The notes under the pieces are model-generated. The model was given only the letters and a program-made list of their open reading frames with translations. It made no database searches and was not told where the DNA came from. 64,000 nt of DNA from Phoronis australis (taxonomy: Eukaryota > Animalia > Phoronida), in contig NMRA01000686.1 in assembly GCA_002633005.1 (NCBI GenBank), forward strand, positions 141,552 to 205,551. The letters run 5' to 3'. Of this stretch, positions 4,740 through 46,615 are shown one piece after another; within the stretch, counting starts at the first letter, position 1, and every line of letters begins with the position of its first letter. The position numbers and the translations under genes are program-made.

Positions 4740-4880
4740 CGTCACGGCCGTAGGAAGCGCGGGGAAGAGTGGAAGGGGAGATGGCAAGTTCCTCCCAATA
4801 ACTTGCAGATGTCAGGGTAAAACCGCGGTAACCACGTCATAGATGTGGGGCCGGGGACAATTCAAGAAAAATACAAACCG
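4740..4880 (+). repeat. Dispersed repeat fragment, second copy at ~54850-54985
   Basis: gtcacgg.cgtaggaagcg...aagttcctcc...ttgcaga..cagg.taaaaccg.gg is shared by both sites. Confidence 0.7.
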
Positions 4881-5679: not shown

Positions 5680-5770
5680 GTGAACGTGAATATAAACGTG
5701 AACTGGATAATTGAGCTCAGGGTGTCCAGTTATTGTAGGCCGAGTACATGTCAGCTAGTTTACAGAAACT
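5680..5770. repeat. Dispersed repeat with (CGTGAA) subrepeats, inverted copy at ~27925-28015
   Basis: ctcagggtgtccag..tgtaggcc.agtacatgtcagctagtttaca matches the reverse complement of 27925-28015. aaagc.acgtgaacgtgaa also occurs at 5561 and 27541. Confidence 0.7.
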
Positions 5771-8700: not shown

Positions 8701-9409
8701 GTCAAATAACCACACTCTCCTTTACATGTATTTGCCCATATTAGTGTCAATAAAGTAGCTGTGAAAAGTAGAATTTTGACAAGTTTACTCCCACAAAATT
8801 AATATTGCTTTTTTTCAGCGACTTCATCTTATTTATGTTGGTGTTGGCCGGGCAACTCTAGAATTGTGGAATTCAAAATTGCACTTTTCTCACTAAGATC
8901 AGTTAAGCGTGCTGTTTTTTAAAAGCGCTTGGGTTAAGACTTTGACAAATTGCAGTGTCGTAGACAAAGTAAACCGGAAATACAAATTTAAGGCCAGAAA
9001 ATTACAAAGAATGTGTCACGACTGAAAGTGGACATATAAGAACAACACACGAGTCATTAAATAAATTCCCTGTATTACTGAAATATTTCAGCATTCAGAC
9101 ACCATGTAACACGAGCAGCCAATAAAACAGGATTGAAGTATTGATCACACGGAAATCTTGAGAACTGTATACACATTACAGACTGCTGCGAAGATCTTTT
9201 ATGGCTTCACAGCAGCTATACAATGTATCCCAAAATGTTCAAATTAATATTCTGAAATAAAATTAACAATGCACGGTATTGCTGTGCATCCGTGCTTTAA
9301 CAGTAACAAAATTTAAGATTACTATAGATTGTTTGATGAGGGTCAAGTCAGGTTCTGATTCTGCTGAGGTGGTTGAGGTTGCTGGCCTAATGTGTCTGCA
9401 CTTAGCTCA

Positions 9410-9721
9410 CTACTTGGGGCGTCCTCCGGGGAAGATATGTTGACACAAGTTGGCGTCATGCTGATGAATAAAGTCATAGATGCACTCTACTCTGACTCCT
9501 TGCTCAACGGTATTCAGATGGAATTGACCTTGTGGCAACACTATATTATGTCCACTCGTGTGCATGACAGCCAAACACGCCTCCTGTTGGTCGTCAGCTA
9601 CAAACCCTGGGCTTCCTGAGCTGCCGGGTCCGAACCTTGAGCTAGATTGGTAAAGCACTCGACGTCTGTCAGCTAATGTGTTGTACGTTTCGTTGTTAGA
9701 TTGTGTGTAAAGTTGAAGAAG
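9410..9721 (-). CDS. Exon 12 (terminal), catalytic Ser (GSSGSPGF) and AVMHTSG
   Basis: Phase-0 acceptor ttgcag|CTT, stop ending at 9410. Same frame as track ORF 9410-9727. The acceptor is slightly uncertain because another AG lies 16 nt upstream. Confidence 0.85.
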   Translation of the reverse strand, partial: LLQLYTQSNNETYNTLADRRRVLYQSSSRFGPGSSGSPGFVADDQQEACLAVMHTSGHNIVLPQGQFHLNTVEQGVRVECIYDFIHQHDANLCQHIFPGGRPK

Positions 9722-12700
9722 CTGCAATTGTAATAAGCTGAATCAAAAAAACGGTGTCTTATACTAATGAATAGTTACTGCCACCCATCCATTGCCACGT
9801 TATGAACACACTAGCTCATGCACTGATATACAAGCTGTACCCGTCTCGTGTCAAACTTTTCTAAAACCTACTTACTGGTATGAAAACTGGTCTCAAATGG
9901 ATTCCTACTCAAATTTGAAGTGATTTTGGACTTATATGAGTTAATTATTTAATGTCACTTCCAAAGCGCAAATCACGTGAATTTGAGCTTACCCAATACA
10001 CAGCACTTATCGATACAACTGGACTTATACCTCACATAAAATGGGCAGTCCTGTCAAGTCATCGTGTTGTGAGCTTAGGGAATTAAATTGCAGGCACTTA
10101 AAACAAAAATTTGTCTAAAGTTTGTTTCACTGAAGAAAGACGTCGTAAGTTTGTATGTTTTTGTCTTAATTTTGACTAATTTACCGGATGTCGAAGTCCC
10201 GAAGTTGAGAAAAATCTTAGACTTAAGGGAGAAAGGAACTTGAGTCGTTTTCTTGGAAGGGGTCGTCTGGCTGGTTGTATGAAACAGTCTGAAATAGGGA
10301 CTCAACTAAGGTCCCTAAGTCTTTTTGCGTATTTGTGTCTCTATGGATAATACATGTATAACTAAAATCTGAGCCCAGAGTCCTTTGAAAATAAATAGGG
10401 ACTCGGCCCTTTACTTGGAGGTGTTGCTTGAAAAGATCCCCAATTATTTTTGATACTGACAATTCAGCGTAGAGTTTACTCTGGATTTGCAGCGAAAGTT
10501 GACTTAGTAATGAAACTTAAACAATTTAAGAAAAAGTAATAGGTATTTTCACAAGTCCAACATTACCCAGTAGATTTGGGGAGCATAGTTGAGTCCCCAT
10601 TTGGTACTGTTTCAAGCTACAGGGTGCTGGTCTCTAACAAGCTCAGTTCTTGGTGAGATCCTAACAGTGTGAGAGGTAATAACCGGATGAACGGGTCTAA
10701 GTCAGAACTTGATATTCACAGTTTATCAAAGAAACTTTATACAGGGTTTTGTTTTGTAAATGTGTTGCCCTCGTTTATAAGTGCACTGTGGGCTTTAATA
10801 CTTTATATTTCACAGATACTGTAGTTGTGTTAGACATCGGTAGTTTGCTGCACGACTTAAAAACAAGTGCAACACATTTTGTTTGACCAAATAATAGAGT
10901 GACGTAACGTGTACCTGTGCTCTATGCATGTCGGATAAGTGCTCAATTTTACATTGAGTATCCAAAACCTTCTCGTGGCCGTCAGGATGGCCCGCAAAGT
11001 GCAGGTATTGCTGTCCCACGATAACTTTAAAACTAGTCAGTGGTGTCGGCAGCGAATGATGGTCTAGCCTCTGACACTGATTGAAGGCTGCCGGAAGTGT
11101 AGCGTTGAAATCTAGATCCACGATAGCCACGTCGAGGTCATCGTCACAAGCTAAGACTGAGAGGATGGGCGCTGCTTGGACTGAGCTCATACATTGCATT
11201 AGTGCCTTGTTAAAGTGAAAGAGAACAGCGTTGCTTCCAACTGAAACAGAGAGACAAAATACATGTAAATGATAAAGTGATCTGTAGAAATCGGGAGCCA
11301 CACAGTGGCGCTACATGTGCATGTAATGGCCATCTCGGTGACAAAAGTAATTTTCTGAATATAGTAGCGCAAAATCGAATCCACCAGCTCCGCGGAGCAG
11401 CCTAACGCTCTACTGCAAGGCGAAATTCCGCACGTTTACTAGCTGTAAAAATAGATTATAGAGTATTTAAATGGTAAAGATACCCGCTGATTTCTGCCAA
11501 TGTCTTGCAGACAACAGCGAGAATTGGCAAATCGTAAGGTCAAAAACAAATCAAAGGATGTTGTTTTTTTATAGCTATGATCCAAATTAATAACTTCAAG
11601 GTATCAATCCAACCCAACAACAATCCTAAGGAGGCCGTCGTAGAACCGGCAATGAGGTGATTTACAAATCAAATCCAACTTGAATCGTTCAGTTAGTCCA
11701 TATTTTTGCAAAATATAAAAAGCTATGAGTGTAGGGATATTCAAACTAGACGACTGCAGTCTTGAAGTAATTTTTAAGTCCACTTCATCAGAGGTGATGT
11801 GGAGCCGGGAACTACATGGCACTGGTTGAAATGTTTGGTTTGAAGGGTCATCTGGAGGTGACGATCACTACAAAAATTATATATACTCGAACAGTCGATA
11901 CTCCGAAAGGCAGTTATATCATACCAATTCTGTGCGGTACAGGCCAAGTAGTCTTACCTTTACTGGTTTTGAGTATGATCTAATTTTAAAGTATAGAACT
12001 TGAAGGATAATAGAGAGATTAAACTGCCACACCCAACCGCACATGGACCCATGCTAGGATGTCACCAGGGAATGACGTAACAAGAGGAATTAACGCAGCG
12101 TTCAATTTCAAGCCGTGTTTTCGGTCACCATTTTCTAATTGAGGTCACGTGATGTTCTGATGCTGGCATGATACTGTTCTTTGGCCAAAATAGGGATGGT
12201 GGGTGGGATCGCACAGAACTCAGACATTATTTATTCAGATCGGCCAACGAGTGACCTCAGATCTTAGGAGCTTTCGTTGGAATGAGGAATCAAGATTAAA
12301 GAATCAAGAATTAAGAATCTTTATTTAACGTCGTTCAAAGAACATATTGATGTTAGCCGGTAGGGCTAATTCTACGACATTAACTTTAACAGAAATATGA
12401 AGAAAATAGGACTTAATTTAAAGATGGATAATAACACATAGATACAGGTGTGAATAAAAGTGAAGTTGCCATAATCGCTAAAGTCTAGTCTAGGAAATGA
12501 GGTAGTAATTCCTAAACTTTATTTTTTTGTGTTTAACGTTAGGATTATGCCTTTAAATTTCCAGTTAGCCTGGGATAGAACACTTAGCGAGTTATTGCTA
12601 GTAAACTTGTATTATAAAAATACATTTCGTCAGCTTTGGGGCCTCCTTGAAGTAACAGTAAGCATGTTGTAAACAGCGCCCGAGGCAGTTTAAGTTTTGT

Positions 12701-15700
12701 AATGGAAAGTTAGAAGTCAATGTTTGTAAACAAAGTTCGACATGCGTTGCGTTTTGTAAAACTACCGATAACTAACGCAGGAAGTTATTTTAATGACACA
12801 GTTTGTAAGAATGAGCGCCTTTTTACAAATAGACTTGTACTCAATGCATTTTGTTTCAAGGGTGATAATACATGTATATGTAAAACGCAACATATTTTTG
12901 CCAAAATTGACCCCGTGTAGGGTAAACACGGCAACGAAACTGGACGGTACTATGGGAACCCAACTATGAAGTGTGAGGCAAAATCACCAGAATGAAATTA
13001 TGTCCACTAGAAAACATTTTTTCCAATTCGGAAACTTGATTTGAAAACCTAGCCTGTTGAAGACCAATCATTTTCATGTTCAACTAAATGATTTTGTGAA
13101 GTGCCCACTTGGGAAACCCCGTTCCAGAAGAGAGAGTCTCCGACTAGATGACGTGGATGTGGTACGAGGTCGCAGTGCGTATTCAGAGTTCGGATAGGGG
13201 GCTAAAGAAAGTTAGAAGGGGCTGCATTTAATAACATAAATGTACTAAAAATGGTGCCATTTGGCGTGGTAACCCTCAGTCCGAATCACCAACCCTTTCC
13301 CGTTCAACTTGCTAAAAACTCAGTTTTGTCTTTCTTACAATTTATTGACTCTAGATCCGCCTCTGCAGCAAATACCGAGGCAAAGCAGACAGACTTTATA
13401 TTTACACAGCTGGTCACAACAACATGTTTCGGTGTTCACAGCACATATCATCGCGATAGATGTCGATGTTGACGTAATATAGGGTGACAATATGTGTCCA
13501 GTTCAACAACGTGGCTTCTGCTTGTCGCAAAGCTCAGCACTTCCAAGTCAAATAATTCACAAATCTATGTACATGTAGTAGGCTCCACCGAATTTTCCTT
13601 ACATGATTGAGGAAACAGTCAATCCTGCATTGACCAGGTCGTCATAATTATTTGTCACTTAGAAAAATGACATTGCTCCCAGAACGATACGCAAAATCAG
13701 ATAGTGAAAATAAGACAACGGGGGCATAAACTACGCAACGCCTTAAATTCTGAAGAGTTTATGAAAAACAACGTTTTCAAGAGGTCTGTGTTGATTCTCC
13801 GACACATACATCTGTACATGTACAGTTAACATGTACATGGACATGTAGCAGCAGTATCATCAAGGTAGGAATTGTGAATGACAATGGTACTGGATACCTG
13901 TATGCCACTGCATATCATGCGTGCACCCAGGGGGGGGACTCGGGAGTTCGAACGAGCCCCTCCCCCAATTTGGCGAAGTGGGCAAAAAGGTCCGCCTCAG
14001 AAAAACAAAAACTCCGAAAAAAGAGGCAAAAGTCCATTGAAAACACGCAGACGCTCAATTTACAATTTCCAAGGTAGTACCCTCATTTTTTGTTTAGTCC
14101 TACCGATATTTTGTCGGCAAAAGGTCCGCACCGACAGAAATTCGAGCCATCCCACATTGAAGGCTGGGTGCGTGCATGCATACACAGAAAAGTGGACTTC
14201 AAACCGAGATTTCAAGTGGCGAGCTGATTTAACCGGCATCAGCTTGTACTTACGCGGGACACTGAGCTCTTTTACAACGTGGCAATTTGTCATAACGTAG
14301 GTTGGACCAACGCGGAACCCAGATCCCAATCCATATCCATCCGACCTTGCAAGTAGAACGACAGACGGGAGCGCACGTGCTAAAGACTCGTGTAAGTGCG
14401 CCAACATCACCTTCTTATTAACATCATGGAACAGTGTGGTAGAGGCTGTGGGCGGTGGAGGAGGCTGTATGAGTGGAAAGTAATCTGAAACACATACACC
14501 TAATGCATGTTACAATAGTGTACTCGACAAGGAACAAAAGTGACACTTTCAAGATTTCCATTGAAACAGGCAATTGGCTATCAACTTAAATTCCTCCTTG
14601 GAATTAATCATTTACCCGACAGCCTTGTATTCACACCCAATATGTCCAATATGCCGTCGTTTCTCCTCTTTACTTTTAGGTTGACGTCTGCTTCTCCGTC
14701 GGGGATAAATTTGCCTTCAGATTTGGTAAATTCTTCGAGTACTGCACCAAACTGCTCCTCAACCGGAGGAGCACACGCTCCTAAAGTTTGGTCGGATGCA
14801 CGTTCAGTAGCTCCTCTGGCCCCACGCAATCGAACTTCAATTGTATGCCCGTGCTTTTTTTCCAGTTTCGTTATATCTCTTTGAAGTTCCATTTGCTTCT
14901 GAAAATGACATTGGAATATCTTTTAATCCCAGTGGCTGTTCAGGATAACTTTCTAACACACTAAAAATCAACAACGAGCCATCTTGCGTCATGAAATTTT
15001 CCTTCGTAAATTTAAAGACGGGATTTTGAAGAACTGAGAGTTTGTTATCGCTTTAGATCCGGCTCAACATGCTGGTTTATATCGACGTGTCACTTTAAGC
15101 GCCGAACGTGGTCTCTTCAAACAGCATATATTCACAATTATGCAGAACGAGGTTCACATCAAAAGTTCGCCTCTTGTGCTAAGTATGCTCAAGTGGACCA
15201 TTTGACTGCAGGTGGCTCGAGATCGTATTACAGCTAGTGTGGCCTGATAATTACACCATAGTAACAAGTATATGTATATGGACCATTGTTATTTGTTGAG
15301 TACCTTAAGGATAGTTTTCGTTTTCTTGACCTCATCTTTGTCTGCATAACCGTATATACCGCAAACGTCCAGGGCTGTTTTATTTTCCTGTAAATATAGA
15401 AATGCACGAATCTATGATGGACTATTGCGAACACCAAGAGGCGAAAGGGAAAGAAAACTGGTTGTTGAATCGTATTTAACGAGACACAATAAGAACAAAA
15501 ACGACAATAGTATGTTGAACATATAGGATCTGACGAACGAAGTTTATGTTTCGAAATAATTTGAAGGTGTGCTTCACAATGACGTGGAGATAAATTTGCA
15601 ATCTTAAGTTCATCACTTGTTTACGCAGAGTCTAAGAACTTCCCCATCACTGAAATAACATGACCACAATCCGCTTTGCAAAACATTTTCTGAACTCATC

Positions 15701-18700
15701 CTTTTAGACGATCAGCCAGTTTTCTTTTGTTTTACACTTAAGTTGTATGCTTATCTGAGACCAGGATCATTATGCTCATGGGCATTAGACTGAATGTGCG
15801 CAATTTCACGTGGTTAAGAATCCGCCAGCGCGCTAAAGAAGGCGTCTAATTTTATCGGGTGTCGACAATTGAAAGGCTCGAAATCAGATAACCATGCAGG
15901 ACAAAGTTGAAATCATCTCAGACAAGTCATTGTTCTTATTTACGTGTAGGTTTCAGGAAGTTTCTTTAAGTGGTTACGAAATATAATGAGAATTGGACTT
16001 GTAAGATGGATTGGATATTTGTCACCTACAGTAGCTAGTTAAGGTGACACCTTAAGAAGCCAGCATGGGAACAGAGTTTAGACAACATCAAAAGACAAAC
16101 GAGTTCCCACGTGACCTGAGTTCCCGCCACTAGGAGTTTATACCGACACATCGGAGGAGACGCGAGGTCTCCCAGGTACTAGTCATATTGTAAATATCCA
16201 GTCTAGAACATAAGTCTGTTTCTGAGTTGCTCAAGCTCTGCATTGTATTAATAGGTAAGAAGAGAGATATCCTATTATAGATTAATCCATTTTAAAACAT
16301 CAGTCCACGGAATTACACAACCACGACACTATGTAGTCGACACGTGTATTTGAGGTGTACTATTAACTCCAAGGAACATTCACAACAAAATATGAATAAA
16401 GACATGGCTGTATAATTTCATTTGATCTTTAAACACGAAATTATTAGATCGTACATGTAACCTGCGTTGATACCGTGCGTACTTGAACGGTCGATTGCCG
16501 ACAATAACTAAAGAATACGTTACATCAAATCTTAACGAACTGTTGTTGATTTTAACACATGCGATCATCTACATGTATGGATCGTTTTATTTAACACAGG
16601 TAATTTCTAATAACTTACTGAAAATTAGACCATTTTTGTCAAAACATAGCTTTCTACGCATGGCTGATGTAACCAAAGACACTGAGAGCTTGCTCGTTTT
16701 GAAATAATCTGGTGTAGACGGCAGGCGCATACCAAAAATGTAAGTGCCACAAAAACTTTTAAGTTTTGGAAGATGAGCCTATGAAAGTTGAAATGGTATA
16801 CCGTAATTTTTAATTCAAAACACATCCGAGAAAACCATTTTGCCTGGAACTTAGAACCTATTGAATTTACGGGCTCTTCTTTTTCTGAGTTGTTGTAAGT
16901 TTGTGGGAATTTGAAGTGTACATGTACAATATTTGAGATCTACTTCGGACAAAATACTGTAAACCAATTGACCAGTCTGGTACAGGACACCAACTCTTGT
17001 CAATAAAAATATGAGCACTTCCAACATGTATCGTTGTTAACTGAGCACTCCTTGCACGGGGGAGAAAGGCAAGCAAACATTGATATTGAAACTTCAAGAC
17101 AAATGTCAAAATGTGTCTTCGGAACATCATACATTGTACTGTACGCAGGCTACCTCTGAAGTGGATTCATACAAAAAAGGTCTGATGATATTTTATGCCC
17201 TCTTATAGTAAACGCCGTTTGCGTTGGTTTTAAAATGTTCCATTTTTGTACGAGGAGCTACCTATTTTACAGTAGCATAAGGAATACCCTGATATCATAA
17301 CGTTTAGTGACCTAAGTCCAACGACAATCTTGTGAAGGAAGGTGGGTTTAATGCCGCTCTATTATCGGGGTTGGATCAAACTGGCGTGATTACTTCAGCA
17401 GGACATGAATCAGAAATGTTTAATTCCTGTGCTAGTGTGATCCACTTAAAGGTGGCTGAGACATAAGCAGGGTGTAATTCTTGTTCCACCCTACCAAAAA
17501 TGAAACTTATAAAACAAATTACTCTATGACACAAGCGATGTCCTCAACCTAATCAGGTCTTTCACTCAAATAAAATTGGTCTCAAAGTATTTCTTACAAC
17601 AGTAGGATTCTATTTCCGTTACCAAAAAGAACGCAATGACCAAAAATCAACTCAAAGAAATGACCCAGTGTTCATTGAGGTTTGCAATCTCTAAAATTGC
17701 ATTATCTGAACTGGCGCTTGTACGCATGGCGTTTGACTTAGAGAGTTCCAACCATGACCGTAAATCTCAAAAGCAATTTTATTCGTACATCTTAAGAGAT
17801 TTAATGCCTTTAGTATGCCTGTTGTAAACAAACAAGCCAAAAGTTTTATTTTTTTTTCTGTAACCGGGGTTGTACGTAACTCGTGGGAAGACCGACTCCG
17901 CCGTTGTCGTGTAGGCCAGTGCGATTTTGAGGAGTTGCGAGGAAAGTCCGCGGAGAGCCGCCCTTTTCAGAAAAGAAATGTTGGAGGCCGTACTAACAGC
18001 AACTTGACTGAGAAAGTCTCAAATTTCCGAAACACGTGAAACTTGCATAGAAATGGCATCAGTTTGAGCGGCCGCCGGTACGAGAGTGTAGAACGTCGTT
18101 AGGCACATGTTTTGACCACTCACAAAAACGACGTTACGATAAACTACTTGCCGCCTTTTAAGTGTATTTGCAATTTTATAGATAACGAACACACTGTTTC
18201 CATTCTGGGGCGAGTGAGGCCAGGCCCTCGATCCCAGGGGTCCAGACCGTTTGCTACGGCACGTAGGCTTATGCATTGTGTATAACGTGCTTATTAGATC
18301 ATTGCCGTGACCCAGGTTTACTGTGCCCTTTGTCAGTAATTTTAAGGATCTATTTCGCGAATATTGACCACCCCTTGCCTCAGTTGGTTGTGGCTTGCAT
18401 GTGTCTGCAGTATTTCTCGTGGAAGTTGGTGGAGTTCATTAAGGCCTGAAAATCGGGAAATCGACTTCACAAGTTCATTGTATGATTCTTCAAGTACTTG
18501 AGTGTGAGGTCCATAGCCTGTCTGTATAACCGTTGTCCAGTTCTCAATCAAAATCGTCCTCGTATTCTGATCTGATTTGTTCCGCCATTGAAATTGATTG
18601 TCAAGTGACCAATAGTCTTCCAACCATTACACCATTTGGCGGGAAACTTGGAAATAACTAATTTTTCTTCACAGTTATACCATTCGCGACTTTTTAGATA

Positions 18701-21700
18701 AAAAGTGCTTAATTTGTTAGATTTCGACATCCGTTTCATATTAGCTAAATAAAAACTCAAAAACTAAAAAATGCACGGTGAGATGTCTACATGTAGGTTG
18801 ATCACTGACTGAAATACACTCCCATGGAGGTAAAGAATATATACGAGACTGATTTTTACGAGAATATTGTGTCACTTGAGTTTCGTTTTGCCTAGCTAAA
18901 AAGAGCGAAACATAGCTCAAAGTTTCAAATTCGAATCTTATTAGAGCCTAATTCTTTAAATTAGATTTTCTGGGCACAGGGTGCTTTACTCAAAAAGTTG
19001 TGAATGGCAAAAATTCTTTGAATTTCGTTTGGACAAAATTTATTGATCTATAAAAATCTTCGTAACCAGCGGGCGCAACCCGTGTTCACGAATGTCCATG
19101 TCCGACTTGTTACATAAGAGAAATCAAAAATTATCATGGGTTGAAAAACATTGTCGTGCCTCTACATTTCAGCCAAGACTCCCTGCACTCTATCCACGGA
19201 CCATCAGACACAAACTCGCGGTATAACTCGTCAGACGAGCGCACCTAATCCTCACATACCCGGTAACTGTATCTCATGCAATATGACAAAACGCAATTTT
19301 TGCTGATCTAGGACAGGGTTTAGAGGATCGTAACTGGAAATTAGTGGAATAACAAAGGAACCATTTCCATCTACATGCACAAACCATGTGCGTTTTTTCT
19401 AAACCTGCACTTATTAACGGATCACTTGTAACTTATATAAACCGACCCGGTAGCTTCTCGCTAACTGAGTCAAGTTAGAACGCTAAATTATATTTTTTTG
19501 GTAAGTAAGTGATGAGCAAGTAAGAAACATTTTTTTCCTCTCTGAATAAAACCGTGTTGAAACCGTGTATACCAGGTAGACATTGTTCTTGAAATCATGC
19601 AGGCGTGTTCCTATTGTTCAATCTCGTAATTACTTACCAAGTTGCGCTGGGTAAAAAGATACCTTTCGTCATGTTATATTTCTGTTGAAGACAATCTTAT
19701 TAAATCTAAAGAGTACCTTGAATATGTGCCTTAAAGTACGTTGCTTTGTTAAAAAAATAGGCTAAAAGTCCATGAGCACAATACATTGCAAAATGTAGTT
19801 AAAGTTGTTATGTTCCAAAAGAAGCTGGACTGTGAAAACAAGCAATGTATCACTAATGGTTACTAAGAGACAACGTTCTTTCCAAGACCTGTTGAAAGGT
19901 TGTCAACATTTGCCGAGAATTGAAAAACGGGACAGCCAGATTTGAAGAACGAGGCACAATAATAAAAAGCCATAGACTTGTGTATACACCAAACCAAGCG
20001 GTGAAATAATCCCTGCAACAAACAAAACTGAATCCGAACGGAAGACCCCCGACGGTTTTTTGCTTTTAGGGAATGGGAAGTTGGAGGGTTCGGCAGAAAA
20101 TTTGGAACTTTTCATTTATCTTTGATAAAAGGAAAAATAGGACAAGACACGTGGTGGTAAGTTAAACAGGCCTTGCGTCAAAAACATTTTGAAAGCTTGC
20201 GAGACTCCGCCAAGAGCAGGTCACTTAGCAGGTACACTGGGTAAGGAAAGGTAGGCTATTACATTTTACACGCAAACATTCCATTGCTTGCATTTAATTC
20301 ATGGACATAGGTAAATGCCGTAAACACACCATAACTGCTACCCGGAAATCTAGATTGCGTTCCAATCGCAGGACTTGAATACAATGTATGTTTATTCCAA
20401 TTTCTCCAGTTAAATTTGGTGGGCCAATTGCTCACTGAACAAACAGAACATTCCGTTGAGCTGTTGATTGCAAGAAACAATGCATGTTTTCTGGGAAAAC
20501 GAAAATTTCACACTATGTCGATCTCAAGTTGACCATTTTTGCATTACCAGTATCGTGGTTTTTAACTTGGGTATTGAAGACTCAGTTCCTCATCCTACCG
20601 ATATAGTGTTTACAAGTACAACAAACCTCACCGCCACACGTACACAATCAAAACACGCACACATCGAAATCTTTAGCCTAAACAACGAGGCAAAAAATGG
20701 CATCAAACTGGCATTTTATTGCAAAAATTACCAATGACATGTAAGCGCGTTTCGGCCAATTTCAATTTTTATAGACGGCAGACACATAAAATCAATGCAA
20801 TATTTTAGGCGTAAAGATATGCCGACATAAGTTTGAAGTCTTTCAGATTGAAGTTGGCGAATTTTGGTAATTGTATTTACTATATATGTACGGGCTTGAA
20901 CGATATATAAAACAAGAGGCCAGAATGGCTCCATTCACAAGTGTATGGTGTAATAGTGATGACGTCTGGTTTCAGTTTTGCCAATTTACCATTAAAAACG
21001 GTGCGTGGTGCACACGGAACAGTATCAATATAACTGGCATGAACCAAAGCGTTTTACGATTACGAGGCCTAAAGTAAGAATAAATAAGCTGTAATAAAGC
21101 AAAATAAATTTGCACCAAAGTGATTTTAAGAGCAAGAAGTGTGCCATATTGATGAAATGGTTATGTTGAATGAATGAATCCTAAAACTCAAGGTATTATG
21201 TGACTACTGTTCACAAAAATTCCATTAAAAGAAGACGTTATTACCACAAAATCAAAAATAGGATATCTTTGAACCAAGTGAAGGACTCGAAAGTCGAAAA
21301 CGTGAGACTGTACGTTTCCTACACCTATATTCACCTTACAATCATGAACAAATCAGTCCGTTAACACATTTTCAAGAATCTAAACCCAGACCTCATATTT
21401 GCAGTGGAAAGGAAAAAAGATCATCGCTCTTTACAAGTATTGCACAGTTCTTCTTTTTCTAGGCTTTTGCACATTCAGGCTTCTGGGACTGTGAAAAAGG
21501 GGGTTGCCCTTTCGAATGGCTGGGCTTTGCCCAATTCACACAATACATACATCTAGGCATAAAAGAATTAATACTAAGCCACTGGGCTACGCCACTGTGG
21601 GAAATTGATTACTAAATATTCTTTCTGTTAGAGTAAACATGATTAAAACCTTCTTAAACGAGGTGAGAAAATTATATGTGCCCGTTGTCGACCATTTATG

Positions 21701-24700
21701 GAGAGGTTGGTATGTCTTTAGTTTGTGCCAAAATATTACAGACAAGAGGCTTTGATTTACTGAGTGTTCTAGTGAAGGTACATGCAGTGAAGAAGTGGCT
21801 CTTTGTTTGACTCCAGGCAAGAAGCAGGTCATTTTCGATGATATATTTGTTATAAATGAATAATTCCACGAACTCAATGTTCGTTTAAAACACATTTAAT
21901 GCAGTCTCAACTAAACAACGAGTAGAACACTCTTGCGATACCTTGTTGACGGTATTGACGTCGCATCCGCTTTCCCTGCACAGTAGTTTCACTACCTCTG
22001 TACGTCCACGTTCAGATGCGTTGTGCAGCGGTGTGTCACCCGACTACAGTAAGTGAACAAAAATAGATAATGTTGATCAGCATTATACAGTAGTGATGTG
22101 GGTGGGTGAACAGGTCGCCAACTTAAAGACTTTTTAAGTTCAAAACTTCACCATCACTTGTCATACTTATGAAGTGAGTGACTCAAAATGACGAGAGTAA
22201 AAACTGACCTTTAAACTCAGACATAATCTGCCCCGGAATTTTTAAAGGTCAGTCTGATTAGATGTTATCCGATTGAAAAGAGTACTATTCTAAAATATGA
22301 CATCAGGATTTTATATATAACAACAGAGTGACATTCATGCATATAGTGAGTGCTGTGGAAATACAAGAACCAAGTCACCGTGCAAGTCTCAGTGAACTGA
22401 TTGTACAGAGCGACGGTTTTTTAATTATTTAAAGTCGCGTGCACGTCACGTCACGTGCGGTGGAATGCAAGGAAAAATGTCAAAGTTTGCAACTAAATCA
22501 TAATGGTGATTTATTAATGAAATCACCGAAAGGTTCAATCTAGTCGCGCGTTGTGTGTTCAACTAAACAACCTGTGTGTCATTACTTACCAACATATCAC
22601 GTACATCTACACTGGCCTTGTGGGCCAACATCACCTTCACTGTTTCTGTATGACCACCCTCTGCTGCCATGTGCAGCGGTGTCACGCCCATCTATGTAAT
22701 ACATAATGGAGATGTGTGAATGGACGATCAACGTTTAGAGCTAATTAACATACACAGGGGAAAGTGAACTTATAAGGTGACATAATGAAACATTACTGAC
22801 CCCTCTAAGACGCTACAATACTTGTAATGATTTCAAGAACCAAGCGTTACAGATTTTAAAACGTTACAGAACATGTTACAACTCTACGCAGCTTTGGTTC
22901 TTCACCAATCAAAAGCAGACGACATATAACTTGTCATTGTTTTAGGACAATAAATTGTGAAAAATATCAACAAAATTTGTTCCTAAACAGTTTTAATCAT
23001 CGTGTGTGTAAACAACTAGTTCAACTAAACAACCTGTGTGTCATTACTTACCACATCACGTACATCTACACTGGCCTTGTTGGCCAACATCGCCTTCACT
23101 ACGTCTGTATGACCACACTCTGCTGCCCTGTGCAGCGGTGTCCGGCCCTCCTATGTAATAAATAATGGAGATGTGTGAATGGACGATCAACGTTTAGAGC
23201 TAATTAACATACACGGGGGAAAGTGAACTTGTAAGGTGACACAAATGAAACATAAGTGACCCCTCTAAGACGCTACAATACTTGTAATGATTTTAAGAAT
23301 CAAGTGTTAAAGATTTTAAAACGTTACAGAACATGTTACAACTCTACGCAGCTTTGGTTCTTCACCAATCAAAAGCAGATGACATTTAATATGATATTGT
23401 TTTAAGGACATTAAATTGTAGAAATATCAACAAAATTTGTTCCTAAACAGTTTTAGCCATCTTTATGTGAAACAACTAGTTCAACTAAACAACCTGTGTG
23501 TCATTACTTACCACATAATCACGTACATCTACACTGGCCTTGTTGGCCAACAATACCTTCACTGTGTCTGTATGACCCCACAGTGCTGCCATGTGCAGCG
23601 GTGTCCCGCCCAACTATGTAATATATAATGGAGATGTGTGAATGGAAGATCAACGTTTAGAGCTAATTAACATACAAGGGGGAAAGTGAACTTGTAAGAT
23701 GACATAAATGAAACATTACTGACCCCTCTAAGACGCTACAATACTTGTAATGATTTCAAGAAGCAAGTGTTGCAGATTTTAAAACGTTGCTGTAACAACA
23801 GAACATGTTGTAGACGTCGACTGCAAGAAATTACAGAGTTCCTCCATAACTTGACAGCGATCCCGCCATGTTGTATTTCTTCACTGGTTTAATTGCTTCG
23901 TGTTTAATATAAAGTTGTAATGTTGAATGGACGATTGTCATTAAGAATAGAAAAGTGGACGTTATTAAAGTCGCTAAATGTGTTGGTGACATGATTCAAA
24001 CTTCAGTTTCTTAAGATGATTGTGCCCCTGCAAGTTGAAAAATACATGTCAAAATATTGAGAAACAAAACGTGCATTTACAAACAAAATATTTAGTTGAA
24101 CTTCAAAGTCTACAGCTTTTGTAATAAAGATAACATTGTCTTAATTCTAATGTCGTCTCAAGTAGTTTCTATTACCTCGTCTCGCACGTCTACATCGGCC
24201 CCACCCTGCACCAGCACCCTCACCAACTCCGTCCTGCCCTCCTCCGTTGCTATGTGAAGTGCTGTCTGGCCCTGCAGAAACAATGAACAATTTATAGCAA
24301 ACTTCACAATCATTAACTTCACTGTGAATCTTAATTACTCATCATGCAAACGTTCAAATAACTCATTTCCACACAAAATTACCAAATCTACTCTATGTTT
24401 ACCTGTTAATTAACAGTCGTGGTTGGAATATATCATCGTGTCAGTGTCAATAGTAATTCTTTCAGTGTAGACATGAGATATTCCTTAAAAGTATGCAACA
24501 TTTATGAAATTACGCACACCTGGTTGTAGCTAACACGAGCTATCACTGTTATTGGAGAAAACCTGTCCTTGATATTCGCACTAATAATCACCTCTAAGAG
24601 CACAATGTCATGAGAATAAAATGTTCAATCCCATTTTTGTTTTTAGGGGCATAACCAGCTAAACAGGGGGAAAAGCAACTTGCTGGAAAATCAATTCCTT

Positions 24701-27700
24701 GATGAAAAAAGGAGGCAATAGACGACAATGCGCGGCACATGTACTTTATCGGCTATACGCGGAAGTTGCGAATATATTGGTAAAATCGTCGTACTCATGC
24801 GGTTTGCTTTTATTAGTGGGTCTACCTGAAACCAACACTTACTGGACGCATCGATTCAAAAGCATGCTTAAACTTATGAATTCTAGACTCTAACAATAGG
24901 GATATGAGACTATTTTCTTTGGCAAGAAATTATTTCTAAATTTGCGTAAGGAAGAAATGGAATAGTGGGACGAGAGAACACAATGATACAGCTTTACAAG
25001 GTCAATGTGACATCAGGATGGGATAATACTGGGACTGAAATATTAAATAGTTTCAGGAAAAAACGGTTGGAGTGTATTGTTGATTAGGAACCACAGGCAC
25101 GGGGAAACATGTTCAAGAGGTCAACACGACAACAGCATCGAACAAAATGCCAAATGGCAAAATCACTTCGCCAAAATGTGCTGGCAAAGACTAAACCCTT
25201 GTATAAATTTTGAACACGTTGAAACACATGTTACCAAAACCTTTTTCCGATGTGTAAAATCAATTACGCGAATGTTACCATTCCAACGCACATCCAAACA
25301 GTTATAAAATTATTCTCTTGTGCAGACTTCAAACGACGACGTCCAGACAGGCGAAGAGTTGCCTTCAAAATGCAGCACTTAGTCAGACAGTTTTCACGTG
25401 TACACGCGATAAATTGATACAACAGCCTCTTGCTGGGTAGGAACAGGAGAAGAATTGCTTTTAAAATGTAGCACTTTGCCTGCCAGTTTTCACGTGTATA
25501 CGCGATGAAATGATACACTTGCCTTATCTTGATTATATTTAAAGGAACATTTCCTGATGATAGGGAAGTGATTAAAGATACAATGCAGCATGACCAATCT
25601 CAAGAAAAATGATCGCAGTTTGAACTTTTGATAGTCGTGTTGATCCCATTTTCAACACAGACGTTCTGAAAGATGCGTTAGCGCAATTATACCTCGTTAC
25701 TGACAGTTTTAGACAATCAGCTTGTTCAACACTTCGTTTAAACAGATGGTGCGATAGGTTTAAGTGATATCAGAAATATGCGGTGCCAAGTAATTTCATT
25801 TGTAACGGTATGATCTCGACAGCTTTTACTGATGGCAAGCAACAAACGTGTACGGAAAATTAAACGTCAGCCTCAATTTGATGTTCTGTCACTAGACTAA
25901 ACTAGCCGACTGATCTTGAACCCCACTTCGACACAAACAGATAAAAGAATTTACAATTTGTACACATTAGGACGAGTAATATAAAAGGGAAATGAAAAAT
26001 ACCTTACTGAATAATAGCATTGGCCCCTTAAAGAATAGAAATATTATGCTGTACCTTAAGCCATTTATCGTTTAAAAACTAAATAAATAAAATCTTTAAA
26101 ACGTCATTGGTTTTTAAAAAATCACCGCCGTGGTAACAATGAGTTGCGCTTACGTCGGTCCATCTACATGTAATTATAGAAGAAAATTTGGAAATCAATC
26201 AGTAGACATTTATTTGTACGTGAACACTGTACTTCACGTGACTAAAATGTTCAAAATGAGATGGGTGGACTTTTGTGTGAAAAATGGCCCCTGATGAGAA
26301 TGAAGCACTCATTGTGTCCATTCTAATAGGTTTGAGAAGCTTATCTTGGGTTGGCAATATAAGAGTGACGTTTACAGTAGTGCATTGATTTTATTTATTT
26401 ATTTATTTATTATTGTGATATTTACATGTAAAATGAGGGTGGCCTCTTCAGTGATAGCACTGCTTTCCAAGAGGGCCCTCAACAAGAAAAACAGTAATAT
26501 AATACAATGAAGTAATAAAACAACAATGAAATATACGTAACAAAGATACAATTAAAACAGGTAGAGAATTAAGACAATAACTAAATGACAAATAATGGTA
26601 AAAATTAACTAAGACAGATGAAATATATTAGAGATGATTCTAGACAGTGAGAGTATTTACGACAAGGAAAAAATGACATGATTAAGACAGGCAGGGTATA
26701 AAAGGTCAAGTAAATTACAGCCACTTTTAATATTTACTTTAAAGGTAGTAATTGAATTGGCCCGTTTAATTTCTGGGCTAAAAGAATTCCACATTACAGC
26801 AGCTGCATAGATAAAAGACCTCTTGCCCGTCTCGGGTTTAATTTTTTTAGAAGAAACATTGCCAGAGATATACTGAAGCCAAGCCATTGATACATCTGTA
26901 CATACAACAGGCAGAGAGATATTTATTTCTTTGATTTACTTTCATAAATCCCAGCTTGGAATACAAGTCGTCAACCCTGGTGTCCCCAATTCTAGTACCC
27001 AGGATAGCCCTGGCGGCTCTATCTTGGATTACTTGGACTTTGTTTACAAGTGTGTCACTAGTGTGCCCCCAAACCGGTAAACAATAATCAATATGAGGCT
27101 GAATAATAGAATGGTAAAGTGTCTTAAGAGTACTGACATTAAGAAATTTGTCTAGACGTTTAAGTACACCGATTTTCTTTGATAATTTCTTTGTGATATG
27201 ATCTATGTGCATATTAAATTTAAGATTGGGATCTAAAGTAAGGCCCAAGTACTTAAAGTTGTCAACATTCTCGATGGGAGAACCGTTGATAGAAAGGGAT
27301 AGTTTTAAAGAACAAGATTACGTCGCCATTGGTACCAATTCCCAAACACGACTGATTCCTGTAACTTACAGTTCACTCGTAGTGGTTAATTGGATAACCA
27401 ACTCTCATCGATTGTACCTCTGTGAACATCTAAAATATGTCTTAGGTAAGACCGGCCGCATGGCCATGACTAAAATCTTCCTAATTTACTAACAAGGTTA
27501 CGTCGTTCCTGTAAACTGACGTCTAATAGAGACGTTTTGAAAAGCGACGTGAACGTGAACTATCACGCAATTTCTGTATAATACCGAGTCATACATGCCA
27601 CTGTTGGATGTGGCACAATCCCGGTAGTGTCCGAGTATTTTACGCGAATACGGAGAGATTCGCGTCGTTTTCATCGCGAAACCTGGTCACATTTTTTAAT

Positions 27701-30700
27701 TCTTGTTTGGTAAGACATCGAGATAATTTCATTTTGATGGGGTTCTCATCCTTTCTAACTTGCTTCAATTTAAAATGAACACATCTCTTTTGTCTATAAA
27801 TGTTCTTAAAGTTTCTTTGCATGTAAGGTCCTTTTAATTTCGCATTCTACATAGCTGACGTTTTTTCGAATGAACTCGTAGAAACGATTTTGTTCACCTA
27901 AAAGAAGTTGTATTGGAAGATTGACTTTGTAAACTAGCTGACATGTACTAGGCCTACATAGCTGGACACCCTGAGTTCAGATATTCAGTTCACGCTTTTT
28001 TACACGTTCACGTAAATATTTAGATGTTGCAAAGCTCACTTTTGTTACCGTAACGTGAATCGACAGAGTAATTAAGTATGCTTTGCGAAGTCTCTCTATG
28101 ATAACATATAACCAGTGTGATATGTGTAACGTTCAAACATTGTTTTAGTTTCGAGAGCGATATTTGAGCTTTCAAATCTATAGGTCTACAATCTTTTGGA
28201 TTAAACCCTTCTTCCGTTACATTAAACAGCATTGGCGTACATTCGATTTCATTTGACGGTTTCCAAACACCTTTTTCTGAATATCTTCCCATAGTTCTAT
28301 TTTCGGGTATTCTCGGCAAGTCGTGCTTGGTCCTACAAGTGCTGAAAGCATGTCTTATTTAACCTTATTGATGCTGAGCCCGCTTTTGGCCTGTACTACA
28401 TTACACATCTATTAACAACGACTTCTCATCCAGAACTCAAGAACGAAATAATGCTCAGTTGGGCAAGACAGCAAGAGCCCTTATACCCATTCTGTGACCC
28501 GGTGATTACAGTATGTGTATTTTAGTATAATAGTGGTTGTATCACCCAAGTAAGACGTGGGTTATATGGCAGTAGTCCGAAGGTGCACTAGTCCGAATAT
28601 AGTCAAGATTTCGGACTGGCGGATGTTTTTCACATTTTTGTACATTCAACTATTCAGAAACTTCCGAAAGCACCAGCCCGCCGGGCACCAAAAAGACCCT
28701 GCATGCAGAAAATTCGGATTTCCATGCAACACACTGTGTTATTACAGCGCAATGTTCATGAAACCAATGCAATTCAAGAGCAGTGCTACACTTGCTCCAA
28801 TGTATCAGTACGCATGTCTCAAAAATTTCTCTTAAGTGGTTTATGGTGTATTTCCCACTTATTAGTGAGAAGCCTTTAGGACCATTGCACATTCAGACTA
28901 GTGAGCTGCTTTCAAGAGGAGAATGAATGTTACCAGGAGACAGAAAGGTGATCGGTGGAAATCACCAAAATAGGAATCCAATTGACTTTGTCTGCTAAAA
29001 GTACTTTTTAATTCACAATTTTCTAAATCATGACACGTGTATCTTCCACTGATTTTTTTAAGAAATGCAAGCTCTCCCTTACTAACGACATTCAGCCATG
29101 TTACGAAGTGTTCACAGCTGGCCAGTGAAAGGGAATTCGCATCCAAAGGATAACATGATTTGAGGAACACCTCATAAACCCCGAAAATAAGGACTTATAT
29201 ATTTGCATGAGGATACAATGAGTAAAACTTTTGTGATGTCATTTCTGTTGCTAGTTTTGGAAGGGTAGTTGCGAAACTCCGTTTACGTAATCGCCTTACA
29301 ATCGTGTAACTACCCAAAAAAGTTGACTTCCAAGAATTTCAATAATCTAGCCCAACTCACACGTGTAGCCGTTGTGATTCGTAAGATATCGGATCCAAGT
29401 CAATACTCTGTTATATGTTATGTGACGTTTTACACCCATAAAAACATGGACACTAGAAAAACATTTGCATTTATCTTACATTTCATTTTGAAGTACCTTC
29501 AATGGTCTATAGTACATGGGTTATCGTATTGCCTGGAAGACAAGGTCTTGGTATTACAGAGTAGTCAAACAAAACGTTTTAGAACACGTTTCAATGGTAT
29601 AAACAATGCTTTCGCTCACACCAGAATGAAAATGAATCAGACTGTAAGACTACTTCCTTATCTTCGAATATGAGAACATACTTCTCATTACTTATAATTT
29701 TTGTAACAGAGCAAGTCTCCACTGAGCATTAAAAATGTGTATTTCACCTCATCAGGCATACGTTCAGTTCAGTTACACATGATAACGATCAATTTCATGT
29801 AGGTAAATGAAGGAAAAACCCTTCTCCTAAGCCTGTCGCTAGCGAAGTGCCCGACACCTACAGTCGCGCCCGCATGCCCACGTAACAAAGGCGCACTGAG
29901 ACGCAACAAAGACATAAGCATTAGAATAACTGAACATTTGCAACCAACTAAGAACAACCATAAGCGTAAAGTTCCGGACGTCCCGTCACATTTTCATCAC
30001 TTAAGAATGTAGATGTGGTATCTATAAACATAAATAACACATGCGTGGAAATGTAACAAGCAAGGAAGATCACAAGATACAACAAGGAGACAAAAGGAAA
30101 CAGAAAAATTAATTGGATAAAACTGACTCAAAATCTCTCAAAAGCTGTAATTATACATGTACATGTGTTGCATTCTCATAGATTTATCTATCTCACATTA
30201 TTTAGTATTTTGTGAAAGACAAACTGTAGAATGCTACCTTCTCGTTTTTGTTGAAACATGGAAAGTCTAGTTTAGTAAAAATCTTGTTTTATACCACTGC
30301 CTTTTTAGGAAAAAAACAAACAGAACTACTACAATTCATACATGGTTTCAACAATTCGGTAATCTAATCCACAAGGGTTGTATAACACTCCAAGCCCTAA
30401 CAAAACACATATATCAGATTCAGGGACGTCATAACAGAAAGATAAAAATCGACATTTTTTAATAAACAGTGGGTGAGGATAAGTTTGTGAATCAATCACA
30501 AATTAAAACCATATCATGAGACCTTATAGAAAATATTCGATGCAATAACTGATTCCTAATAAATATTCTGATAAGTCATGCAAAGGTTCCTTAGTATTTT
30601 CACAAAAGGTCGAGTGTATGCACTACAAATACACATACATCTGCAAATATATGATATCAAAATCATGAACGCATTTCCGTGATCATTTGATTAATACAAT

Positions 30701-45700: not shown

Positions 45701-46065
45701 TTTTGTGACTGCACAAGGCCATTGCAAGGGTAAATGGGGGACTAATTTAAAACTGTTGTTTTTTAATGTGACCCGAGTTTGGATCTCAAACTGTACATGC
45801 TGTAATATCTAATCAAAATATCTTTACAAATTCATAAAACTTAGGTTGTGATGTTATAATTATAATGTCAGCTAGACCGGTTGTGAATATAGCGCCTAGG
45901 CGGATTAAACAATCAAATTTCGATAAACATATTCAGCATAAAACAAATAAAAGACGAGGACCCAAACATGTTTCAAGGACGACGAAATGAGGGAGTTTAG
46001 ACTCTCACCTCTAGCAGTTCTTCCCTACTGAGACGAACGCCGCCTGATTTTTTGCTCTCAGCCAT
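9410..46065 (-). CDS. Spliced 12-exon gene: ankyrin-repeat + FAM111-like trypsin-fold serine protease, 628 aa
   Basis: Exons 46065-46009, 37923-37831, 24271-24176, 23613-23512, 23150-23052, 22691-22590, 22043-21942, 15387-15304, 14898-14616, 14484-14254, 11240-10915, 9721-9410. All introns are GT-AG with matching phases. The total is 1887 nt, one uninterrupted frame from ATG to stop. Contains ankyrin TPLH/TALH motifs and protease motifs GSGFRVG..MTNCHVV, LDVAIV, GHPDG.K..D, GSSGSP and MHTSG. Confidence 0.88.
10915..11240 (-). CDS. Exon 11, protease core with catalytic Asp (DDLDVAIV) and FAM111-type GHPDGHEKVLD
   Basis: ctgtttcag|TT acceptor and CAG|gtacac donor, phase 1-0. Same frame as track ORF 10810-11301. 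Confidence 0.9.
13916..14178. mobile_element. MITE in intron 10, 15-bp TIRs, imperfect 5-bp TSD
   Basis: TIRs catgcgtgcacccag / ctgggtgcgtgcatg. Flanks catat / catac. Confidence 0.75.
14254..14484 (-). CDS. Exon 10, poly-Pro linker and start of protease domain with catalytic His (MTNCHVV)
   Basis: tttcag|AT acceptor and CCG C|gtaagt donor, phase 1-1. Contains PSVVLL..GLGSGFRVGPTYVMTNCHVV. Confidence 0.9.
14616..14898 (-). CDS. Exon 9, linker (KQMELQRDITKLEKKHG...GVNTRLS)
   Basis: ttttcag|AAG acceptor and TCG G|gtaaat donor, phase 0-1. Same frame as track ORF 14608-14892. Confidence 0.8.
15304..15387 (-). CDS. Exon 8, C-cap ankyrin repeat: ENKTALDVCGIYGYADKDEVKKTKTILK
   Basis: tttacag|GAA acceptor and AAG|gtactc donor. 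TALD capping-repeat motif, phase 0-0. Confidence 0.8.
21942..22043 (-). CDS. Exon 7, ankyrin repeat: SGDTPLHNASERGRTEVVKLLCRESGCDVNTVNK
   Basis: ctgtag|TCG acceptor and AAG|gtatcg donor. 102 nt, phase 0-0. Confidence 0.92.
22590..22691 (-). CDS. Exon 6, ankyrin repeat: MGVTPLHMAAEGGHTETVKVMLAHKASVDVRDML
   Basis: tag|ATG acceptor and TTG|gtaagt donor. 102 nt, phase 0-0. Confidence 0.92.
23052..23150 (-). CDS. Exon 5, ankyrin repeat: EGRTPLHRAAECGHTDVVKAMLANKASVDVRDV
   Basis: tag|GAG acceptor and GTG|gtaagt donor. 99 nt, phase 0-0. Confidence 0.92.
23512..23613 (-). CDS. Exon 4, ankyrin repeat: LGGTPLHMAALWGHTDTVKVLLANKASVDVRDYV
   Basis: tag|TTG acceptor and GTG|gtaagt donor. 102 nt, phase 0-0. 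Confidence 0.92.
24176..24271 (-). CDS. Exon 3, ankyrin repeat: GQTALHIATEEGRTELVRVLVQGGADVDVRDE
   Basis: ttctgcag|GGC acceptor and GAG|gtaata donor. Canonical ankyrin consensus, phase 0-0. Confidence 0.92.
25350..25516. repeat. Local degenerate duplication (~107-bp period)
   Basis: gaag..ttgc.tt.aaaatg.agcactt..c.g.cagttttcacgtgta.acgcgat.aa.tgataca occurs twice. Confidence 0.75.
26388..27310 (-). mobile_element. 5'-truncated L2/CR1-group LINE (RT C-terminus, 3' UTR, microsatellite tail), frameshifted
   Basis: FKYLGLTLDPNLKFNMHIDHITKKLSKKIGVLKRL..TLKTLYHSIIQPHIDYCLPVWG, then a frameshift to KRSFIYAAAVMWNSF. (AATA)n tail at ~26388-26414. Confidence 0.9.
31356..31488. mobile_element. Short MITE of the (C/T)AG(T/G)GGCGGAT family
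   Basis: taggggcggatcca ... aaatctgccacta termini. Interior resembles the reverse complement of 60922-61083. Confidence 0.65.
34819..37078. mobile_element. hAT5-like MITE (CAG..CTG ends, ~5-bp TSD) interrupted by a nested 2-kb TIR element
   Basis: Termini cagttgcggattt and aatcctggatctgcccctg. Flanks aaaac / acaac. The paralog has the empty site (cacgcctaataacagagtctc, ~566-586). Confidence 0.8.
34902..36933 (+). mobile_element. Non-autonomous ~2-kb TIR DNA transposon, copy 1
   Basis: TIRs cggctaaatcacaatcaaggtccatattc / gaataaggaccttgattgtgatttgcccg. About 8 internal GTAGTGTACGTACCCC-like motifs. No ORF of note. Confidence 0.88.
37831..37923 (-). CDS. Exon 2, N-cap ankyrin repeat: VERAAWNGDCTTLEKYLKSGWDVNQQLNNLL
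   Basis: tttcag|GTT acceptor and TTA|gtaagt donor, phase 0-0. Has AAxxG..L..G.DVN ankyrin pattern. Joins to GQTALH of the next exon. Homologous exon at 1556-1467. Confidence 0.85.
38030..38370 (+). mobile_element. 3' end fragment of an L1/Tx1-like LINE ORF2
   Basis: ILLLAKQYVYKERC..P.F..F...E...A......RFSAKWEKF resembles the L1/Tx1 ORF2 C-terminus. It is followed by a T-rich 3' UTR and aataaa. Confidence 0.6.
40053..41922 (-). mobile_element. Non-autonomous ~2-kb TIR DNA transposon, copy 2 (inverted relative to copy 1), TSD TAT
   Basis: Termini cgggcaaatcacagtcaagatccatatt and aatatggaccttgactgtcatttagccg. Flanks tat / tat. Has an internal ~340-bp duplication and an internal deletion. Confidence 0.88.
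46009..46065 (-). CDS. Exon 1 (start): MAESKKSGGVRLSREELLE
   Basis: ATG at 46065, donor GAG|gtgaga, phase 0. The same 57-nt exon with ATG and donor is conserved in the paralog at 4573-4517. Confidence 0.8.
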
Positions 46066-46615
46066 ATCCAAGTCTGGTCTTGTCGGTAGCTGTCGTTAAT
46101 CTGCGCCGAAAGATAACACAGTAGTTTCTGTTTGAATGGGTTTTTCCAAGTTTCGATGCGTCACATGCCAACCAACACAATAGATGTAGGCGTTCACGAG
46201 TATAAGGTCGCTAAACAAATTCACAAACTAGTACTTGTGAATCTGATTTTAATAGCCAAATTTGGTCGAGTAACAATCAAAGATTCCTCCATCGAACTCC
46301 TGGTTTTTCTATGAAAATTTTCGGATTAAACTTAGAACTATATTTTTGCGATATTTTATTGCGCGCGTAGATTATGACCAAGTTACTGCCAGATTTTGGA
46401 ACTCTTTCGTTTAGTGAAATAAGAATTTGGAGCATTGTCTGCCAACCAAAACAAATTATATTTCACGAGCCACGGCACTATTGTGTATTTCCGTGGGATG
46501 CTAGTGAATACTGTAGTAAGTGCATCGGAATATTAGAAGCATGTGATTGTGACACTGGCCGATAAGACATTTTATTGTTATTTTCCCGTGTTTTTAACTC
46601 CATAATATCCGCCTA

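Follow-up and report, generated by a model that had tools for sequence, protein, structure and literature searches.

Does a single intact gene of Phoronis australis join a stack of ankyrin repeats to a trypsin-fold protease of the FAM111 type, and what might such a protein do? The question is raised by a locus on contig NMRA01000686.1 (assembly GCA_002633005.1), of which we analyzed a stretch of 64,000 nucleotides (nt) with a G+C content of about 39%, referred to here as the window. An earlier note on this stretch had proposed a hidden gene of 12 phase-compatible exons over 36.7 kb, encoding 628 amino acids (aa) with about seven ankyrin repeats (aa ~20-245) ahead of the protease domain. The gene is transcribed and intact, and its ankyrin and protease exons are joined in RNA, as detailed below.

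An intact gene whose ankyrin and protease exons are joined in RNA

The proposed model could be rebuilt exactly. Its 12 exons lie on the minus strand from 46065 down to 9410 and, when joined by their coordinates, give 1887 nt that correspond to 628 codons and one stop, with the frame open throughout and GT..AG ends in all 11 introns. The ATG of exon 1 is preceded by an in-frame stop 12 codons upstream. In the spliced frame the catalytic triad falls exactly where it had been placed, with H408 in TNCHVV (starting at aa 405), D453 in LDVAIV (aa 452) and S560 in GSSGSP (aa 558). In order, the product comprises a stack of seven ankyrin repeats, a spacer of 112 aa (aa 246-357) and the complete FAM111-type protease. 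Its N-terminal end is hydrophilic and, because the highest 19-residue Kyte-Doolittle mean across the model is only 1.45, neither a signal peptide, the lack of which had been claimed before, nor a membrane helix is apparent.

The ankyrin part is distributed over the first eight exons. Exon 1 (46065-46009, aa 1-19) encodes a hydrophilic stretch, carries the start codon at 46065 and a GT donor, and its end opens the N-terminal capping repeat, which continues in exon 2 (37923-37831, aa 20-50, 31 aa) as a helix pair ending in ..GWDVNQQ... When the seven repeat exons (exons 2 to 8) were scanned singly, five passed the Pfam Ank cutoff of 21.1 bits with scores of 37.1-40.5 bits. These are exon 3 (24271-24176, aa 51-82, 32 aa; PF00023, E 1.4e-09, 38.1 bits, with AG/GT borders in phase 0), exon 4 (23613-23512, aa 83-116, 34 aa; E 9e-10), which is the first of three 463-bp tandem exon+intron units, exon 5 (23150-23052, aa 117-149, 33 aa; E 2.5e-10), exon 6 (22691-22590, aa 150-183, 34 aa; E 3e-09) and exon 7 (22043-21942, aa 184-217, 34 aa; E 2e-09), each encoding one ankyrin repeat between phase-0 borders. 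Exons 2 and 8 gave no Pfam match when scanned alone; exon 2 and the last part of exon 1 jointly look like an N-cap repeat, and exon 8 (15387-15304, aa 218-245, 28 aa; ..NKTALDVC..) reads like a degenerate C-terminal cap. The previous count of about seven repeats accordingly breaks down into five that pass Pfam and two that are cap-like. As had also been pointed out, the open reading frame (ORF) track misses these exons, and among stop-to-stop ORFs of at least 70 aa none catches any of them.

Downstream of the repeats, exon 9 (14898-14616, aa 246-339) encodes a 94-aa linker that matches no Pfam family and that, when modelled alone by AlphaFold2 from the single sequence, reached a mean pLDDT of 48, an unreliable fold. 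The protease domain starts in exon 10 (14484-14254) with F358 (a conserved aromatic residue), the predicted first helix and H408, continues in exon 11 (11240-10915) with D453 and the invariant GHP motif, and ends in exon 12 (9721-9410) with S560 in GSSGSPGF, the MHTSG and VEQGV motifs and the stop codon at 9412-9410. The transcript reaches at least to 9337, as a transcript contig covers 9337-9723; no minus-strand AATAAA was found between the stop codon and 9150.

Transcription was assessed in RNA data carrying the same species label, namely a contig set (X1) and three stranded RNA-seq runs (X2, X3 and X4). Reads were mapped to positions 8500-28499 at 95% likeness and to 14240-24400 at 90% likeness. 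Seven of the 11 junctions of the proposed chain were seen. The joints of exon 12 to 11, 11 to 10 and 10 to 9 were found in all four data sets, as was, at 90% likeness, the joint of exon 9 to exon 8 (14898->15304; an X1 contig and 11, 1 and 17 reads), which means that exon 8 is linked to exons 9 and 10 and not cut off from them, the outcome that the earlier note had named as speaking against its model. The joint of exon 8 to exon 7 (15386/7->21941/2) spans a 6554-nt intron with canonical ends and was seen in two of the four, in X1 as a contig that extends 69 letters past the joint on its shorter side, and in X4 as 11 reads from nine starting points, with a further 16 reads in a variant form. 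Further upstream, the joint of exon 6 to exon 5 (22691->23052) is present in an X1 contig, and exon 3 is connected to exon 2 by an X1 contig that runs past 24271, 30 letters of its overhang being identical to 37860-37831. A chain running from ankyrin exon 7 through exons 8, 9, 10 and 11 to exon 12 therefore links the ankyrin part to the protease in RNA.

The reads over the exons are oriented nearly all one way (24.4 versus 0 in bin 9167-9833 of X4), as would be expected for a transcript of the minus strand when the library is a standard stranded one. Among the 43 transcript variants listed, 16 are synonymous and 27 non-synonymous, and none makes a stop. The ratio of synonymous to non-synonymous variants was 4:1 in exon 10, 3:10 in the linker (exon 9) and 2:5 in exon 8; the variants of the protease core are mostly synonymous and the linker is the fastest-changing part of the transcripts.

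Kinship of the protease domain

The link to FAM111 was built by scripts on the whole protease domain, the single exons being short, with relatives fetched via one amphioxus protein. Exon 12, compared by phmmer with 1.84 billion cluster representatives, matched three proteins at E<=0.001. Two of these were set aside as artefacts, being internally repetitive with 15 and 13 matched stretches. The remaining protein, P0003 of Branchiostoma floridae, matches exon 12 at aa 11-98 with 47% identity (E 9.7e-5), and its sole significant match among solved structures is the protease domain of human FAM111A (8S9L/8S9K, E 3e-14, over the whole domain). A word-index search with P0003 yielded 16 relatives, comprising amphioxus proteins, several of them named 'serine protease FAM111A-like', one fish FAM111A-like protein and three unnamed proteins. 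No close relative of the gene (at least 50% identity) was found among the 1.84 billion representatives.

A profile of the protease region of 15 FAM111A-like relatives matched aa 358-623 of the model with 112 bits (E 2e-36). This match spans positions 12-261 of the 270 profile positions and exons 10 to 12, and the protein ends five residues later. When the same profile was run against solved proteins, FAM111A was the only strong match (176 bits, E 1e-50), followed by exfoliative toxin B (38 bits), V8-type proteases (about 35 bits) and HtrA (about 23 bits); no NAL1 entry was among the best 60 of the 94 solved matches at E<=1. H408, D453 and S560 align with the invariant H, D and S of the 15 relatives. 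In total, 17 of 18 family-invariant columns are kept (one Thr is changed to Ser), as are 22 of the 29 columns that are at least 90% conserved, and the invariant residues beyond the triad include T-N-x-H, G-H-P, Y, G-S-S-G-S-P-x-F, H-x-x-G and I. The F358 column holds F or Y in all 15 relatives; the invariant serine located after the first helix comes 21-22 residues later. By BLASTP, the amphioxus proteins share 26-31% identity over 230-290 aa (E down to 1e-21) and the fish FAM111A-like protein 23% (E 3e-5). These comparisons show a domain of divergent FAM111 type, not of HtrA type, as the earlier note had expected, with a link to human FAM111A that is transitive and runs through the amphioxus proteins. 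Atlas feature searches for exons 11 and 12 yielded no more than generic PA-clan peptidase clusters (for exon 11, Trypsin/Trypsin_2 clusters with a best score of 0.91) and were uninformative on architecture, and word-index searches with the same two exons for longer proteins gave no match, which is weak evidence.

With human FAM111A (8S9K/8S9L; PMC10920703), the protein would share the character of an intracellular S1-type trypsin-fold protease, a helix before the first barrel, the conserved aromatic near the autocleavage place and, via the amphioxus bridge, the motifs T-x-x-H-V, L-D-[YV]-[AS], G-H-P-x-G, F-G-x-S-G-S-P-x-F and M-H-x-x-G. The triad spacing is 45 residues from H to D and 107 from D to S, versus 54 and 102 in human FAM111A (H385/D439/S541). 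The greatest difference lies ahead of the protease, where seven ankyrin repeats and the 94-aa linker take the place of two ubiquitin-like (UBL) domains. No PIP-like motif (Q-x-x-[LIVM]-x-x-[aromatic]-[aromatic]) occurs in the 628 aa, and upstream of aa 358 the profile comparison found no similarity to the N-terminal regions of the FAM111A-like relatives, in line with the claim that ankyrins stand where FAM111A has its PIP box and UBL domains. A PIP box is described for mammalian FAM111A only (PMC9798293). On the sequence features, the protein is a FAM111-like protease (MEROPS S1, unassigned subfamily; Pfam Trypsin_2) and not FAM111A or FAM111B in the vertebrate sense, because UBL domains and a PIP box were tested for and not found.

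The nearest sequence relatives found are the amphioxus FAM111A-like proteins P0003-P0015 (B. floridae, B. belcheri and B. lanceolatum), whose similarity extends over the whole protease domain and which, as here, form a multi-copy invertebrate family. Unlike the Phoronis protein, they carry unrelated N-termini, and ankyrin repeats were found in none of 17 relatives by precomputed Pfam assignments and in none of 15 that were scanned. Invertebrate FAM111A-like proteins without UBL domains are described from soft coral and amphioxus, in passages of PMC9798293 that do not mention ankyrin fusions. By title and abstract, no FAM111-ankyrin fusion was described in the papers listed by a literature search, and no paper was found on Trypsin_2 with ankyrin or on NAL1 with FAM111, so that the earlier impression of an uncharacterised architecture survives this limited search. 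Trypsin-like effectors are known from fungal and bacterial conflict systems (PMC8195603), and the gene resembles the repeat-sensor plus protease or caspase systems of fungi and bacteria in having a repeat recognition module, a protease effector and signs of rapid diversification. Those systems generally work via STAND/NLR NTPase or adaptor domains, whereas no such domain is seen in this gene; specifically, no NACHT or NB-ARC NTPase was matched by Pfam in 11 exons or in 72 other ORFs of the window. Unlike HtrA/DegP (S1C), the protein has no PDZ domain after the protease, none being matched by Pfam in the exons.

Diversification of the ankyrin exons and possible function

The exon+intron units of exons 4 to 6 form a tandem array (22557-23788) with a period of 463 bp, 2.7 copies and 91% matches. 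Across the three copies the flanking intron differs by 16 changes in 202 gap-free columns (0.079 per site). On a star tree, the first 31 codons (93 nt) of exons 4, 5 and 6 differ by 16 non-synonymous changes and one synonymous change, equivalent to a non-synonymous rate (dN) of 0.227 and a synonymous rate (dS) of 0.044. In these recently duplicated exons coding changes outrun those of the neighbouring intron (Fisher test, non-synonymous sites versus intron, p=0.002; non-synonymous versus synonymous, p=0.06). The variable repeat positions are 1, 3, 8, 11, 12, 16, 17, 20, 21 and 24, with three residues each at positions 1, 3 and 12 and two at position 11. Positions 1, 3, 11 and 12 flank the GxTPLH turn and close helix 1, which are the usual ligand-contact positions of ankyrin repeats. 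Taken at the level of sequence, the ankyrin module shows signs of diversifying selection.

The gene is a member of a family. A tblastn search with the model detected a tandem paralog that starts 4.8 kb downstream and is oriented like the gene (1467-4573, minus strand); its first two exons are present, and its remainder lies beyond the window start. Its exon 1' (4573-4517, 19 aa) has the same length as exon 1 and 60% identity to it over 20 aa, and its exon 2' (1556-1467, 30 aa) is 48% identical to exon 2 over 31 aa (E 5e-4); splice sites and reading frames are present in both, following the same design as exons 1 and 2. An assembly gap (N run 3112-3252) lies inside the intron between them.

Diverged family members with other repeat arrays are also expressed, because most reads are only 90-95% alike (741 of the 1006 X2 reads mapped at 90% likeness), other ankyrin-exon combinations occur and one ankyrin exon comes from outside the window. 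The latter was seen in X3, where 18 reads leave exon 7 (at 21945) for an ankyrin exon beginning ENGNTPLHGA. No such exon is present in the window at up to three mismatches, which implies that an expressed paralog or allele has an extra repeat. Odd joints were recorded from exon 6 to an exon 4-like exon (15 reads in X2 and 17 in X3), from exon 7 to exon 4 and from exon 5 to exon 3, along with joints that go back (23149->21941 and 23578->23122).

The explanation that we favour as a whole, by a modest degree, is that the ankyrin surface of the 628-aa product would select the protease's target or its switching ligand. To judge from the families involved, the protein would be an active protease of the cytosol or nucleus, and the concave face of its ankyrin stack may bind a pathogen factor or a host protein. 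Binding could place the target or another enzyme molecule at the active site, or it could alter self-association. Activity may depend on pairing via the helix ahead of the first beta-barrel, as in human FAM111A, where F334 is the autocleavage site and the following helix (V347, V351) is the dimer interface needed for activity (PMC10920703), and self-cleavage after F358 might detach the protease from the ankyrin module. Such activity would either destroy the bound target or unleash proteolysis at toxic levels, and recognition would be diversified in the gene family by duplication and change of one-repeat exons.

Within this explanation we lean, tentatively, toward a defence-type role because of the diversification signals, at a confidence that stays close to but short of an even balance. 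We infer a one-component receptor-effector or immune protein, as the earlier note did, from indirect signs, namely the non-synonymous excess in the duplicated ankyrin exons, the tandem paralog and the expressed diverged paralogs. Human FAM111A offers a precedent for such an effector: its protease activity is cytotoxic (PMC7534640), it breaks down vaccinia I3 and can itself be inhibited by SPI-1, a viral serpin (PMC13245274), and SV40 large T is reported to inhibit it directly (2026 preprint). A review treats as open by what means FAM111A recognises its targets and which of its roles, the antiviral one or that in replication, is the older (PMC9798293). More speculatively, and in our estimate doubtful, marine invertebrates may possess a family of intracellular immune receptors that unite, on one chain, a killer protease of FAM111 type and an ankyrin sensor of its own, with phase-0 repeat exons that are duplicated, swapped or skipped and, under positive selection on the binding face, supply a specificity repertoire. 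If this were true, the antiviral role of FAM111 would be ancestral and its target-recognition module exchangeable. The replacement of the N-terminal half by a protein-binding module suggests that the protease cassette is a portable effector that can be set on varied recognition domains, and the gene offers a simple, testable system for ligand-dependent cleavage.

Several observations weigh against these proposals, and they overlap in part with the support for rival explanations. An ankyrin-protease fusion can equally serve ordinary substrate targeting, and the main rival holds that the protein is an ordinary regulatory protease without a defence role, in which the ankyrins are a fixed adaptor for substrate or localisation, as in ankyrin-bearing ubiquitin-ligase receptors, and which processes one or few host proteins. 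This alternative, which we consider possible but rather unlikely, fits the architecture alone just as well, and transcripts in all four data sets with no challenge on record, together with the mostly synonymous variants of the core, agree with it. It sits less easily with the excess of non-synonymous changes that the duplicated repeats show at binding-type positions, with the tandem and the diverged expressed paralogs and with the lack of a close relative in the cluster representatives, unlike what is seen for a conserved housekeeping gene. The selection test, on the other hand, is small, being based on 93 nt in three copies, and gene conversion limited to the intron could mimic part of the contrast. 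A transcribed yet non-functional gene, decaying or catalytically dead, would account for the many non-synonymous variants in the linker and exon 8 and for the long branch described below, and is nevertheless improbable given the open frame, the canonical splice sites, the intact triad and 17 of 18 invariant residues, the absence of any stop among the 43 variants and the predominance of synonymous changes in the core.

The least probable rival is that ankyrin and protease exons belong to two separate genes and that the model reflects read-through, or reads of paralogs fused into a chimera. In its favour, the joint of exon 8 to exon 7 was not seen in X2 or X3, and the 18 X3 reads mentioned above go from exon 7 to an ankyrin exon outside the window instead. 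With regard to the model in general, the joints of exon 7 to 6, 5 to 4 and 4 to 3 of this locus are absent from the clean joints listed by read mapping. Many of the mapped reads come from paralogs, and the odd ankyrin joints could reflect paralogs, alleles with other repeat numbers, exon skipping or circular RNA. Against two genes stand the canonical sites of the disputed joint, its X1 contig and its direct and variant X4 reads, the joint of exon 8 to exon 9 in all four data sets, the frame open over 12 exons and the fact that no ATG-initiated alternative first exon was seen for the protease part. It is also very unlikely that the FAM111 label is wrong and that the protease is of another S1 lineage (HtrA/DegP, staphylococcal S1B or NAL1-like), even though Pfam gave for the single protease exons only a generic Trypsin_2 match in exon 10 (E 0.0017, below cutoff) and phmmer with single exons found nothing significant among solved structures, including no direct match to FAM111A (8S9K). 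A maximum-likelihood tree places the protease domain, without a supported sister, at the end of a very long branch (2.72 changes per column), and the domain is for this reason regarded as divergent FAM111-type and not as a FAM111A ortholog. The sole real library match of exon 12 is FAM111A-like, however, the model scores 112 bits over the full domain, 17 of the 18 family-invariant residues are kept and a PDZ domain is lacking, whereas the FAM111-like profile gives HtrA about 23 bits and S1B proteases at most 38 bits, with NAL1 missing from its best 60 of 94 matches. As to the proposed self-cleavage, extending the alignment between P0003 and FAM111A without gaps puts the F358 column no more than one residue from human F334; their equivalence is an extrapolation that is one residue off.

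Surroundings of the gene

None of the window's 72 stop-to-stop ORFs of at least 75 aa outside the exons matched a Pfam family, and in 46100-64000 and 4600-9400 tblastn likewise gave no further matches to the 628-aa model; by this crude ORF test, few genes are to be expected in the 18 kb upstream. Scans for Rfam families and for tRNAs over the window returned 0 matches each.

Several introns contain short islands of reads. Within intron 10, some 60 nt (about 13962-14023) are covered by many reads on both strands, for example 50-88 per run, which run off into unlike sequence on both sides. This stretch, for which no Rfam family was found, is probably a piece of some repeat or of an abundant transcript that originates elsewhere. 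Similar short islands with both-strand reads and overhangs on both sides were found at 17931-17966 and 18474-18507 (intron 7) and at 26429-27320 (intron 2). The ORF at 26850-27317 (156 aa), with no Pfam match at E<=0.01, resembles the tail of a retrotransposon reverse transcriptase, and the islands of introns 7 and 2 are likely fragments of mobile elements.

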